64,000 nucleotides of DNA from positions 36,225 through 100,224 of the forward strand of contig JAWSVD010000074.1 in the NCBI GenBank assembly GCA_033852095.1, in the 5' to 3' direction. The translations under genes and the position numbers were made by a program. Numbering within the stretch: position 1 is the first letter of the stretch; each line of letters begins with the position of its first letter. Origin of the DNA: Granulosicoccaceae bacterium (lineage in GTDB: Bacteria > Pseudomonadota > Gammaproteobacteria > CALCKW01). A model generated the notes under the pieces. That model was given only the letters and a program-made list of their open reading frames with translations. It made no database searches and had not been told where the DNA came from. Below are positions 3,202 to 62,549 of the stretch, in pieces.

Positions 3202-4096
3202 TTAAGCTGAGCCCTTGGCCTGAGCCATGACTTCTTCAGCGAAGTTTTCTACTTTCTTTTCGATGCCTTCACCCACTTCAAAGCGGGTAAATCCTGTGCA
3301 GCTAGCACTTGAAGCTGCGAGCAATTTGCCCACAGTTTGATCAGGATCCTTCACAAAAGGCTGACCCACCAGTGTGATCTCGGCCAAATACTTGCGCATG
3401 CGACCGTCAACCATTTTTTCAATGATTTCATCGGGTTTGCCACTTTCTTTCGCTTCGGCGACCAGAATTTTGCGCTCTTTTTCAAGCGATTCAGCGGGCA
3501 CACCTGACTCATCTACACACACGGGCTTGCTGGCCGCGATGTGCATGGCAATGTCTTTTGCCAGGTCTTGGTTGTCTTTATCGACAGTGGCCAAAACACC
3601 GATACGGCTGCCGTGCAGGTACATGCCCACAGCACCACCCGCTGCGGCTTCAACCACAGCTGCGCGACGCAGCTGAATGTTTTCACCGATTTTAGCCACC
3701 AGCTCTTGACGCACTTCACTCAAGGTTTTGCCATCGCGCTCTGCAACAGCGGTGCTGTTCAGAACATCGAGATCGCCGGTATTGGCCGCCAGCACGAGGT
3801 TGACGACCAGTGTGCTGAAGGATTTGAAATCGTCGGCTTTGACAACAAAATCAGTTTCACAATTGATCTCGACCATCGCCAAACGCTTGCCGTCTTCGCT
3901 CTTAGCAAAGACAACCACACCTTCTGCAGCCGTGCGGTCGGATTTCTTGTCGGCTTTTGCCAGACCAGAAACACGCATGTTCTCGATTGCTTTTTCCATG
4001 TCGCCACCGGCTTCAACCAGTGCCTTCTTACATTCCATCATGCCAGCGCTGGTGCGCTCGCGGAGTTCTTTAACCATTGCTGCGGAGATTGACATC
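3202..4096 (-). CDS. tsf: Elongation factor Ts
   Basis: The protein starts MSISAAMVKELRERTSAGMMECKKAL, the EF-Ts signature. A GAGG Shine-Dalgarno sits 6 nt upstream of the ATG at 4096. Confidence 0.95.
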
Positions 4097-12084: not shown

Positions 12085-12161
12085 TGGCGGAGCGGACGGG
12101 ACTCGAACCCGCGACCCCCGGCGTGACAGGCCGGTATTCTAACCAACTGAACTACCGCTCC
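12085..12161 (-). tRNA. tRNA-Asp(GTC), copy 1
   Basis: The reverse complement gives GGAGCGGTAGTTCAGTTGGTTAGAATACCGGCCTGTCACGCCGGGGGTCGCGGGTTCGAGTCCCGTCCGCTCCGCCA. It has a cloverleaf, a GTC anticodon and an encoded CCA. Confidence 0.9.
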
Positions 12162-12194
12162 AAAACTACTCTTTCAAACTCACACTACACACGA

Positions 12195-12218
12195 AAAAGG
12201 ACACCTGATGAGGTGCCC
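12195..12218 (-). terminator. Intrinsic terminator 3' of the second tRNA-Asp copy
   Basis: On the minus strand the sequence is GGGCACCTCATCAGGTGTCC plus TTTTT, a slightly imperfect copy of the first one. Confidence 0.45.
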
Positions 12219-12232
12219 TAATCGTCAAACTT

Positions 12233-12309
12233 TGGCGGAGCGGACGGGACTCGAACCCGCGACCCCCGGCGTGACAGGCCGGTATTCTAACCAACTGAAC
12301 TACCGCTCC
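12233..12309 (-). tRNA. tRNA-Asp(GTC), copy 2
   Basis: It is identical in sequence to copy 1. A tRNA-plus-spacer unit of about 148 bp is tandemly duplicated. Confidence 0.9.
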
Positions 12310-12347
12310 AAAACTACTCTTTCAAACTCACACCACGTGCGTGAATT

Positions 12348-12423
12348 TGGTGGGTGTTGAGGGACTTGAACCCCCGACCCTCGCCTTGTAAGGGCGATGC
12401 TCTCCCAACTGAGCTAAACACCC
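12348..12423 (-). tRNA. tRNA-Val(TAC)
   Basis: The reverse complement gives GGGTGTTTAGCTCAGTTGGGAGAGCATCGCCCTTACAAGGCGAGGGTCGGGGGTTCAAGTCCCTCAACACCCACCA, with a TAC anticodon. Confidence 0.9.
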
Positions 12424-19119: not shown

Positions 19120-19204
<85 letters not shown>

Positions 19205-19320
19205 ACACGTAAACGGCAGCCACATCAGGCGAAACTCTGACGCGACCGCTGACCTGAAACGCGCTGCAGGCACACCCGAAAAGAAAACCCTTCAGGTGAC
19301 GACACCAACAGTGCAAAATA

Positions 19321-19397
19321 ATGGGGTGGACGATGGGGCTCGAACCCACGACAACCGGAATCACAATCCGGGACTCTACCAACTGAGCTACGCCCAC
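19321..19397 (-). tRNA. tRNA-His(GTG)
   Basis: The reverse complement gives GGTGGGCGTAGCTCAGTTGGTAGAGTCCCGGATTGTGATTCCGGTTGTCGTGGGTTCGAGCCCCATCGTCCACCCCA. It has the G-1 extra base and a GTG anticodon. Confidence 0.9.
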
Positions 19398-19407
19398 CAC
19401 TGAAAAC

Positions 19408-19483
19408 TGGTACGCCCGGCAGGACTCGAACCTGCTACCCTCGGCTTAGAAGGCCGATGCTCTATCCAGATGAGCTACGGGCG
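19408..19483 (-). tRNA. tRNA-Arg(TCT)
   Basis: The reverse complement gives GCGCCCGTAGCTCATCTGGATAGAGCATCGGCCTTCTAAGCCGAGGGTAGCAGGTTCGAGTCCTGCCGGGCGTACCA. The anticodon loop is CTTCTAA. Confidence 0.85.
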
Positions 19484-19509
19484 CCCGGGCAATACACTTT
19501 CAATAAAAC

Positions 19510-19586
<77 letters not shown>

Positions 19587-19618
19587 GATCACTCTTGACT
19601 GTGCCAGCCAAGAGATAG

Positions 19619-25356: not shown

Positions 25357-25391
25357 CAGCGCGGCATAGGCGCACGCTTGTAATTTAGTAC

Positions 25392-60480: not shown

Positions 60481-61080
60481 ATGCCCATTTCAAAAAATTC
60501 CGCGATCGCTATTTGCACCGTTTCGGCAATTTTCTTGTTCGCGGGCGACGGCATGTCAATCCCTCCGGACACGGGTGCCTTGACCGACAGGGCCGCAAAC
60601 CGCGCTGCCTTGCCAAAACCCCGCGCGAAGCCGTCTTTGATCATCGGTCAAAAAACCAAGCTGTTCATGGGAAATGACGCCTACCTATTTGGCACACGGG
60701 CGCCGAGCACCACCGCCGGCATCCAACAACCCAGCTACCGTGTGGGCATGGGCAAAGAGTTCGACCGCAGCGGCGGCGGCAGCGTATTGGGCGAACTGAG
60801 CTTTTCGCCGATCGACACAGCGGCCGAGCAGAGCTCTCGCGCAGCGGCAAGTACACGGCTTTCCGCCGCCTACTTACGCCAGATCAACCAGCGCGCCGAT
60901 ATCCGAGCGGCCCTGAGCGCAGACCTAGGCGCCACTAATAACTGGTCCACAGTAGAGCTGCAGCTGTCATTGAAATTGAGCGATCAGCTCTCGCTCAAAC
61001 TCAATCACGACAACGGAAGAGCCAATCACGGCCCAGAACGCGAGCATTCCACCGGTCTGTCCATGCAAAGAAATTTCTGA
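60481..61080 (+). CDS. Hypothetical secreted/outer-membrane protein
   Basis: It has a signal-peptide-like N-terminus (AIAICTVSAIFLFAGDG), a Gly/Ser/Ala-rich central region, and a C-terminus ..LSMQRNF ending in Phe as beta-barrel OMPs often do. Confidence 0.4.
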   Translation: MPISKNSAIAICTVSAIFLFAGDGMSIPPDTGALTDRAANRAALPKPRAKPSLIIGQKTKLFMGNDAYLFGTRAPSTTAGIQQPSYRVGMGKEFDRSGGGSVLGELSFSPIDTAAEQSSRAAASTRLSAAYLRQINQRADIRAALSADLGATNNWSTVELQLSLKLSDQLSLKLNHDNGRANHGPEREHSTGLSMQRNF

Positions 61081-61241
61081 TTTATCAGATAGATATGTAA
61101 TTGTTGCAAAAATAACTTCACTTTCTTTTCACTCATACTTGAATAGTCCTTCAACTAGGCTATATTTATGAGCAGTTGTTCAACAACTGCGATTGATGAA
61201 GTGCTCTGGCCAGTGGCAGCGAACAAGACCAAGGATGGATC

Positions 61242-61567
61242 GGCACACGGATGTGCAAGCTCGCCGCCAATTTCAATTGCTGGAGAAAGCTAGACCCGAG
61301 AAGATCAAGGACGATCACTGGCACACGGATGTGCATTCTCGACCAGTGTTCTGAAGTACCTGAACACACCGGCAAGCGCCGAATAGCTCGGCGATTGCGC
61401 GAAGGCACAGGGATGTGCCTAAAAACGTTAGCTGTAGGTTTTTGATTTTGAAGTAGACATGTCGACGATTACTTCGGGGCCGCCGAGCAGATCAGGATGA
61501 TCTTATTCGGCCCAGCCCTTGACCAGCAGACCATGGATGGACCTTCGCACAAGGACGTGCACTCTCG
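61242..61567. repeat. Four dispersed copies of a roughly 22-nt motif (GGCACACGGATGTGCAnnCTCG)
   Basis: The copies lie at 61242-61263, 61320-61341, 61404-61419 (degenerate) and 61546-61567, spaced 78, 84 and 142 bp apart. Copies 1 and 4 share an upstream GGATGGAYC extension. Confidence 0.6.
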
Positions 61568-61585
61568 CCCCACAGTACCCCTGAG

Positions 61586-61630
61586 CACGGTTCAGTTAAT
61601 CACCACGATTAACTGGCCGTGTTTTTTTTT
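61586..61630 (+). terminator. Plus-strand intrinsic terminator ending the repeat-containing non-coding region
   Basis: The sequence is CACGG-ttca-GTTAATC-accac-GATTAAC-tgg-CCGTG followed by TTTTTTTTT. No matching T-tract exists for the minus strand. Confidence 0.55.
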
Positions 61631-61652
61631 GCGCTAACGCCGAGCCGCCGCC

Positions 61653-62549
61653 CTACGCCCCGCCCAACTGGCTTGCAAACAGCTCCGTCAAGACCTCGAT
61701 GTTGTTTCTCCCTGTGTAGTTAGCACGGCTGATCATGGCGATGCTGCGGTGTGGCCCAGGCGCATCGAGGTGCACCGCGGCCAACTCAGACGCGTCGGTA
61801 ATCAGCTGCTCCAGCGCCATTTCAGGCACCAGTGTGGTGCCCATGCGTCCCGCCACCATCTGTATCAATGTATACAGACTGGTGTGACCTAAGGCCTCAT
61901 TGCCAGAATGAAGTTTGAGGTGACACGCCGCCAGCGCGTGATCTTTCAGGCAATGCCCGTCTTTCAGCAACAACAACTTACGCGCGTCCAGCTCATCCAC
62001 CGTGACCTGCTCTTTGGCGGCGATGGGGTCAGTGCGATGCGCCACCAGATAAAAATCTTCACGCCAGAATTCACTCACATTCAGCCCGTCCAGCGGGTAT
62101 GGCAAGGCGACAATGGCCGCGTCCAGATCGCCGCGCCGCACCAGGTCCACCAGGCGCGCACTTTGCTCCTCGACAATGGAAAGCTGGAAATCCGGGTGCT
62201 GTAGCCGCACCGCCGGCAATACTTTTGGCAGCAGATAGGGGCCAATCGTCGGGATCACACCCAGCGCCATGGGATAACTCAGGGGGTTCTGGCCCTGCTG
62301 TGAAATCTGCAGCAATTCATCCATCTGACCGAGGATCAGCCGCGCTTGCTTCAGCACCCGCTCCCCCATGGGGGTCACCAGCACGCGCTTGTTGTCGCGC
62401 TCAAAGAGCTGCACATCCAGCTGATGCTCCATTTCAGCGATGGCGCTGCTCAGGGCTGATTGCGACACGGAACAGCGCTCAGCCGCCCGCTTGAAGTGGC
62501 GTTCCTTGTCGACTGCAACCGCGTAATTAAGCTGTTTGAGGGACACCAT
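61653..62549 (-). CDS. oxyR: Hydrogen-peroxide-responsive LysR-family regulator OxyR
   Basis: It has a LysR HTH (HFKRAAERCSVSQSALSSAI) and a redox Cys pair in OxyR context (GHCLKDHALAACH versus E. coli GHCLRDQAMGFCF). It is divergent from ahpC. Confidence 0.8.
   Translation of the reverse strand: MVSLKQLNYAVAVDKERHFKRAAERCSVSQSALSSAIAEMEHQLDVQLFERDNKRVLVTPMGERVLKQARLILGQMDELLQISQQGQNPLSYPMALGVIPTIGPYLLPKVLPAVRLQHPDFQLSIVEEQSARLVDLVRRGDLDAAIVALPYPLDGLNVSEFWREDFYLVAHRTDPIAAKEQVTVDELDARKLLLLKDGHCLKDHALAACHLKLHSGNEALGHTSLYTLIQMVAGRMGTTLVPEMALEQLITDASELAAVHLDAPGPHRSIAMISRANYTGRNNIEVLTELFASQLGGA

Follow-up and report, generated by a model that had tools for sequence, protein, structure and literature searches.

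The intergenic stretch at 61081–61652 of the window (the whole 64,000-nt stretch of DNA from a marine Granulosicoccaceae bacterium analysed here) lies between a plus-strand gene encoding a 199-aa protein, which ends at 61080, and a convergent gene encoding an OxyR-type LysR regulator, whose stop codon begins at 61653. A gene encoding AhpC is divergent from oxyR. The stretch very likely contains a gene for a non-coding small RNA (sRNA), whose transcript would carry an array of GGA-containing hairpins and is considered below as a candidate ligand of CsrA/RsmA. The gene and its upstream neighbour are laid out as follows:

61139–61166, plus strand: sigma-70-type promoter TTGAAT-16-TATATT (−35 element at 61139–61144, 16-nt spacer, −10 element at 61161–61166).
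61172–61630, plus strand: predicted sRNA transcript of ~460 nt, with the 5′ end placed from the −10 element (±4 nt) and the 3′ end at the U-tract.
61172–61190, plus strand: 5′-terminal hairpin GCAGUUG-UUCAA-CAACUGC, paired at 61175–61187 in the minimum free energy (MFE) structure, with two extra G-C pairs on each side read from the sequence.
61583–61630, plus strand: intrinsic terminator consisting of an 18-bp stem with one bulge (61583–61624), a 5-nt loop and a U9 tract (T-run 61622–61630).
60481–61080, plus strand: DUF481-like gene of 199 aa, probably encoding an outer-membrane product; it is the upstream neighbour, lies outside the RNA and is found 5′ of the sRNA gene in every family member.

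The promoter is the sole promoter-like site within 60900–61800, and its −10 hexamer is preceded in the window by a conserved C, giving CTATATT. A single terminator-like site is present at the locus, on the same strand as the promoter; its stem overlaps the start of the nine-T run, and it is predicted to function on the plus strand only, as the earlier note on this DNA had described. Transcription of the gene (61139–61630) would thus start a few bases past TATATT and end at the U9 terminator. Folding of the predicted sRNA gives an MFE z-score of −2.6. Just 5′ of the −35 element (61100–61138 in the window and equivalent positions elsewhere), most members of the family described below carry an A/T-rich GCAATTAATAC-like sequence, which may represent an UP element or a site for a regulator and is not a GacA box. 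At the other end of the gene, an 18-nt inverted repeat (83% complementary) is formed by 61386–61403 (GCUCGGCGAUUGCGCGAA, inside the sRNA) and 61628–61645; the second arm begins in the last Ts of the terminator and extends past the predicted 3′ end of the RNA.

Inside the predicted transcript, the motif GGCACAnGGAyGTGC occurs in four copies starting at 61242, 61320, 61404 and 61546, with spacings of 78, 84 and 142 nt. The repeats and the 78/84 spacing reported in the earlier note are therefore confirmed, as is the GGATGGAYC extension shared upstream of two copies (61233–61241 and 61535–61543). Searched as a 22-nt pattern with up to three mismatches, the motif has three matches in the 64-kb window, all of them in the intergenic stretch, against 0.02 expected; the copy at 61404 lacks the CTCG tail and is consequently detected only as a member of the 15-nt family. 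The copies belong to a larger array of GGA sites, comprising three two-site modules and two single hairpins, together with one isolated triplet:

61226–61263, plus strand: module 1, with CAAGGAUG (61230–61237), an overlapping GGA at 61237 and the hairpin GGCAC-ACGGAU-GUGC (61242–61256); the main GGA pair is 16 nt apart, with unpaired probabilities of 0.99 and 1.0, both in MFE hairpin loops.
61282–61284, plus strand: extra non-consensus GGA (GCUGGAGA) with an unpaired probability of 0.35, probably a weak site.
61303–61341, plus strand: module 2, with the hairpins GAUC-AAGGAC-GAUC (61303–61316) and GGCAC-ACGGAU-GUGC (61320–61334); the GGA pair is 18 nt apart, with unpaired probabilities of 0.97 and 0.98, both in hairpin loops.
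61404–61419, plus strand: single hairpin GGCAC-AGGGAU-GUGCC, unpaired probability 1.0.
61489–61503, plus strand: single hairpin AGAUC-AGGAU-GAUCU, in which the site has the variant form AGGA; the triplet is in a hairpin loop and has an unpaired probability of 1.0.
61528–61567, plus strand: module 4, with CAUGGAUGGACC (61532–61543) and the hairpin CGCAC-AAGGAC-GUGC (61546–61560), unpaired probability 0.47–0.62.

Full CANGGAYG sites number seven, all on the plus strand within 61230–61557. In the segment 61175–61632, all 11 GGA triplets are on the plus strand; the minus strand lacks both GGA and CANGGAYG. Elsewhere in the window, the background frequency of CANGGAYG is 0.09 per 458 nt (Poisson P ~8e-12), and no more than two sites were obtained in any of 20,000 shuffles. 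The thermodynamic fold prediction assigns GGA triplets a mean unpaired probability of 0.76 versus 0.40 for all bases, and places 7 of the 11 in MFE hairpin loops. GGA hairpins also occur outside the 22-nt family, at 61230, 61303–61316 and 61489–61503, and the three site pairs are spaced 16–18 nt apart.

By its sequence, the repeat core GCAC-A(N)GGA(Y)-GUGC is the CsrA/RsmA consensus CANGGAYG with the GGA placed in a hairpin loop. The earlier note missed this identity, along with the promoter, the additional GGA hairpins and the strand asymmetry. The RsmA/RsmF consensus CANGGAYG allows any base at N and either C or U at Y, keeps GGA fixed and is displayed in a stem-loop (10.1101/315341). The repeat core also fits the consensus RUACARGGAUGU obtained for CsrA by SELEX (PMC3856055) and the A(N)GGA motif found in apical loops by crosslinking and immunoprecipitation sequencing (PMC5207318). 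When the seven sites of the window are aligned on GGA, only the C, the A, GGA, the G and the closing G:C pair are invariant; the N position takes all four bases, and the seventh base of the consensus is always C or U. The stems differ among the sites yet pair (GCAC/GUGC four times, GAUC/GAUC and CC/GG). As the diverged sites keep only the consensus and its presentation, selection has maintained the protein-binding consensus and not a longer sequence.

These features also bear on the idea that the repeats act as DNA, either as palindromic operators (GCACA-N4-TGTGC) recognised by a transcription factor of the adjacent genes or as a dispersed element resembling repetitive extragenic palindromic (REP) sequences or miniature inverted-repeat transposable elements. 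Each copy indeed holds a short palindrome, and the copies lie between two convergent genes, a frequent location of REP sequences. However, the conserved part is the asymmetric centre NGGA, the GGA strand bias is 11 to 0, some sites combine a different stem (GAUC/GAUC) with the same loop, and the copies are inside a promoter–terminator unit. The REP-like origin envisaged in the earlier note also finds no support in the distribution of the motif: all copies in the 64 kb lie within 61230–61567, no clusters were found in 80 OxyR loci of other bacteria, and in relatives they occur only at the syntenic site. A function at the DNA level has next to no likelihood in our estimate.

Contigs of related bacteria were gathered through homologues of the DUF481-like protein, through OxyR homologues and by one metagenome scan with a pattern combining the promoter and the 5′ end; conservation and covariation were computed over ten loci. 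Besides the window, nine full members of the family were found on Granulosicoccaceae-like contigs (L003, L084, L085, L086, L089, L090, to which L091 is the same, L093, L095 and L097). The nearest species genome, L003, is a Granulosicoccaceae metagenome-assembled genome whose OxyR is 74% identical to that of the window; in members where oxyR adjoins, the identity is 72–78%. Two Logan contigs, obtained with an OxyR query beginning at ATG, belong to the species of the window and differ from it by 1 nt in the region, which makes the comparison uninformative, while the exact OxyR query with the TTG start gave no matches. In a search for closer relatives with an expanded array, no OxyR of 79–99% identity was found in the protein collection. 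The metagenome scan (23-nt pattern) yielded a true member, L093. Its other match, L092:1597–1619 on a TARA contig, was rejected as a chance match: no GGA module is present downstream, and an unrelated perfect hairpin and an open reading frame (ORF) follow.

The element was present in only one (L003) of the OxyR-based loci from 80 species genomes, because its constant companion is the DUF481-like gene, not oxyR. The sRNA gene lies downstream of all DUF481-like homologues (P0001–P0008), the protein of the window matching Pfam DUF481 weakly but above threshold (E 2e-4, 21.9 bits, cutoff 21.1). The link to oxyR drawn in the earlier note proved incidental, since the downstream gene differs in L090 and L091 and the upstream DUF481-like gene is constant. 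For annotation, what looks like a "22-nt repeat next to oxyR" belongs neither to the oxidative-stress locus nor to the coding repeats. In L098, a more distant relative whose OxyR is 71% identical to that of the window, only 21 nt (3404–3424) separate oxyR from the DUF481-like gene, leaving no sRNA gene there. The family is therefore not found throughout the lineage.

A gene encoding a GGDEF-EAL protein (cyclic di-GMP turnover) is located directly upstream of the DUF481-like gene in most relatives:

L084, L086, L089: 1273–2880; L095:4408–5903, minus strand; L003:3105–3455, minus strand: GGDEF-EAL gene.

The window, L090 and L097 lack this neighbour and have a gene of the MR_MLE enolase family in its place.

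The promoter cTTGAAc-16-(G/C)CTATATT is located at the same place in L003, L083–L086, L089, L090, L093, L095 and L097. All members share the start GAACAAGCGUUCA, which forms a small hairpin and is followed by a variable stem-loop. In the relatives, the 5′ hairpin reads GAAC-AAGC-GUUC and occupies the same place as that of the window (helix 1 of alignments A3 and A4 in all members). Further downstream lies the near-invariant module CAGAUCAUGGAUGGACUGGCACANGGAYGUGCA, predicted to form two adjacent hairpins with a GGA in each loop, 16 nt apart. Counted from the nominal 5′ end (61170 in the window), eight members have their first GGA triplets at 64, 68 and 80, those of module 1 of the window coinciding with those of seven relatives. 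One module is present in L003, L084, L085, L093, L095 and L097, with RNAs of ~160–175 nt, and two modules in L086, L089 and L090 (~260–280 nt), where a ~100-nt unit is duplicated in tandem. CANGGAYG sites number two to three in the relatives and are clustered at the syntenic locus. The ~460-nt copy of the window is, to judge from this comparison, an expanded array, in which module 4 is closest to the single module of the relatives. Two other contigs, L083 (1234–1329) and L094 (1518–1613), both from run SRR26541459, end exactly 96 nt past the stop codon of the DUF481-like gene, where the sRNA is just beginning; the DUF481-like proteins they encode share 73% and over 90% identity, respectively, with that of the window. 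Such ends suggest an assembly break caused by internal repeats, and hence that close relatives also carry multi-module arrays.

Alignment of eight sequences gave a consensus of four helices, in which 93% of cells are paired versus 32–44% after sliding of the 3′ partners. Changes on both sides affect nine pairs, a number reached in 0 of 500 shuffles. This covariation is located in the variable stem-loop and in the terminator stem, and the stem of the GGA hairpin is invariant. Both the 5′ arm of the terminator (GAGCACGG) and its stem are conserved, with compensatory changes in the relatives (helix 4). The structured plus-strand sRNA with its own terminator proposed in the earlier note is thus supported: the nine related loci repeat the promoter, the 5′ end, the GGA module and the position of the terminator, and there is covariation in two stems.

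The earlier note had also offered a repeat-encoded small peptide, and asked whether substitutions in relatives preserve RNA pairing or a reading frame. The pairing is preserved, and the frame is not. The 64-aa ORF in question (61251–61445), encoding a basic, Cys-containing product, does exist, with three repeats in one frame, but its region mostly has no counterpart in the relatives with one or two modules, and the ORF is unique to the window. A second candidate begins at a conserved ATG (61168 in the window; MNKRSGK...MDGLAHGCA in relatives) and is open through the first module in six of eight members, with the module in the same frame. However, this recurring ORF is interrupted at codon 14 in two members, L090 and L084 (in the latter by one CGA-to-TGA substitution that its close relatives lack), yet both retain the module downstream. 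The C-termini show no relationship to one another, and the stops lie at different positions everywhere; the frame stays constant for a trivial reason, namely that indels are absent from the 5′ region, as the fixed positions of the first GGA triplets indicate. With the ATG 1 nt past the −10 hexamer, the transcript probably starts at or beyond this codon, which has no Shine–Dalgarno sequence. In addition, the variable region changes via compensatory stem substitutions, a pattern of RNA and not of coding sequence. A small protein can hardly be what this stretch encodes. The locus therefore has the makings of an independent non-coding transcription unit, with its own promoter and terminator, covarying stems and no conserved ORF, its transcription being predicted.

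CsrB, CsrC, RsmV, RsmW, RsmX, RsmY and RsmZ make up the Csr/Rsm class of sponge RNAs. The RNA described here is probably a CsrA/RsmA-binding sponge of the CsrB/RsmZ type, constituting an uncatalogued family of this well-known class: it has multiple motifs on the transcribed strand, and its GGA triplets are predicted to be unpaired, mostly in loops of short hairpins. We infer transcription, CsrA binding and the regulatory outcome along the following lines. The ~460-nt RNA would display seven CANGGAYG sites and four more GGA triplets, mostly in short-hairpin loops, and each molecule would bind several CsrA dimers. A CsrA dimer bridges two sites 10–63 nt apart, with an optimum at 18 nt (PMC3856055), and the pairs spaced 16–18 nt would suit one bridging dimer each. 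CsrA would thereby be titrated from the GGA-containing ribosome-binding regions of mRNAs, relieving its translational control.

Several observations weigh against the assignment to CsrA sponges. At Rfam 15 gathering scores, only tRNAs match in the window. A GacA/UvrY box (TGTAAG-N6-CTTACA) is absent near the promoter in every member. Regular-expression and tblastn searches of the 64-kb window and all fetched loci found no csrA, and the expected partner is assumed from taxonomy, given the wide occurrence of Csr/Rsm systems in Gammaproteobacteria (PMC7652899). A clear U-tract terminator is seen only in the window, L003 and L084. The one-module relatives contain 3–6 GGA triplets, of which one or two are well presented, a number at the low end for a sponge, and RgsA, which has a single motif, does not sequester RsmA (PMC2375449), a precedent that concerns the members with few GGA. 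Finally, the invariance of the ~35-nt module exceeds what CsrA binding alone would appear to need.

The last two points, few GGA in one-module members and a module invariant well beyond the 8-nt consensus, favour a non-coding sRNA whose GGA hairpins serve otherwise, as a base-pairing regulator of the Hfq type or as a ligand of another RNA-binding protein. In the former version, a CU-rich element (CUCCUCCGAC in relatives, CUCUCGCCCC in the window) would be an anti-Shine–Dalgarno seed. CUCCUCCGAC (L084:3800–3830 and equivalents) is located 20–30 nt past the main GGA hairpin and is duplicated with the module in two-module RNAs; it is complementary to GGA-rich and Shine–Dalgarno-like sequences, and the version in the window (61561–61572) is degenerate. 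Most members retain such an element 3′ of the main hairpin, and RNAalifold applied to six members pairs it with UGGAUGG. Nevertheless, CCUCC is not kept in the window, L090 and L093, and the masking helix UGGAUGG/CCUCCGA, present in the six-sequence consensus, is dropped from that of eight sequences and serves as a lead only. No target or Hfq site was identified for a base-pairing regulator, and the diverged paralogous sites of the window retain exactly the CsrA consensus. We consider an sRNA of other purpose unlikely, and an RNA with a dual function that also binds CsrA is possible.

A related idea, which we hold to be very unlikely, is that the RNA is a switchable or dual-function CsrA decoy and not just a passive sponge. 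The CU-rich strand CUCCUCCGAC would then mask the upstream GGA pair intramolecularly, gating the number of CsrA dimers captured, or alternatively would pair with ribosome-binding sites of mRNAs; the number of modules (1, 2 or at least 4 across sister species) would tune the capacity.

Returning to the sponge and its presumed partner, csrA was also checked for beside the tRNA cluster at 19.1–19.6 kb and was not there, cysS being found instead; in E. coli, a tRNA cluster follows csrA. The window has two tRNA clusters, Asp-Asp-Val at 12085–12423 and, on the minus strand, Leu-His-Arg-Pro at 19120–19587; the latter is flanked by a trigger-factor-like and a cysS-like gene (both identified from ORF translations only).

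As regards the GacA box, the best matches within 200 nt upstream of the promoter reach 7–8 of 12 positions and are not conserved in location in any member. Over the whole window, eight matches with up to three mismatches were counted versus 12 expected, the nearest being 5 kb off. One match with two mismatches, at 25379, lies inside a coding sequence and is attributed to chance. Because RsmV and RsmW are not GacA-activated either, the absence of the box bears on the regulation of the sRNA and not on its class. The −10 region (61160–61166 in the window) is conserved as (G/C)CTATATT in all members, with C at −13, and resembles the sigma-S-type element (T/G)CTATACT (PMC2375449), which hints at stationary-phase expression, as a lead only.

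The predicted sponge may open a way into the Csr/Rsm network of Granulosicoccaceae; in the literature searched, no paper named both Granulosicoccus and CsrA. With the module present once, twice or at least four times in related species, the family provides a natural series on how the number and spacing of sites relate to CsrA capacity, and its roughly ten sequences could seed a new covariance model. It should be useful for annotation and for studies of sponge expansion, although a specialist would not be surprised by it.

Since no Rfam 15 model matched, the RNA lies outside any curated family. At a permissive threshold (E up to 10), the only Csr-related match in the window is the RsmV hairpin (RF04320, clan CL00106), 16 nt at 61404–61419 with E 0.48 and 12.5 bits versus a gathering score of 100; the same search on six relatives gave no relevant match. 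CsrB and CsrC of Enterobacteria resemble the RNA of the window in being long and in having many repeated GGA hairpins, an intrinsic terminator and spacing that a dimer can bridge. CsrB contains 22 potential sites at a mean spacing of 12 nt (PMC3856055), whereas the sites here are fewer (11 GGA), long hairpins without GGA lie between them, and no homology is detected in Rfam. The 18-bp UvrY inverted repeat ~180 bp upstream on which csrB and csrC depend (PMC4682653) has no counterpart at the gene of the window. RsmX, RsmY and RsmZ of Pseudomonas, RNAs of 110–180 nt that carry multiple unpaired GGA and sequester proteins of the RsmA family (PMC2375449), are comparable to the one-module relatives (160–175 nt, 3–6 GGA). 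They differ in having a palindromic GacA upstream activating sequence on their promoters, not found here, and show no sequence homology.

RsmV and RsmW of P. aeruginosa share with the RNA of the window a stand-alone or gene-proximal location and several CANGGAYG motifs in stem-loops. Overall homology in sequence or structure to either is absent, the host is Granulosicoccaceae-like, and the RNA of the window is more than twice as long, with more sites. The hairpin of RsmV touched by the permissive match reads GACACAgGGAUGUGUC against GGCACAGGGAUGUGCC. Neither RsmV nor RsmW has a GacA box nearby, like the gene described here, and RsmW, too, immediately follows a gene whose function is unknown. 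RsmV carries 4 sites over 192 nt (10.1101/315341) and RsmW has 7 GGA, 3 of them in loops, so that the number of sites in the present RNA is within the range of proven sponges.

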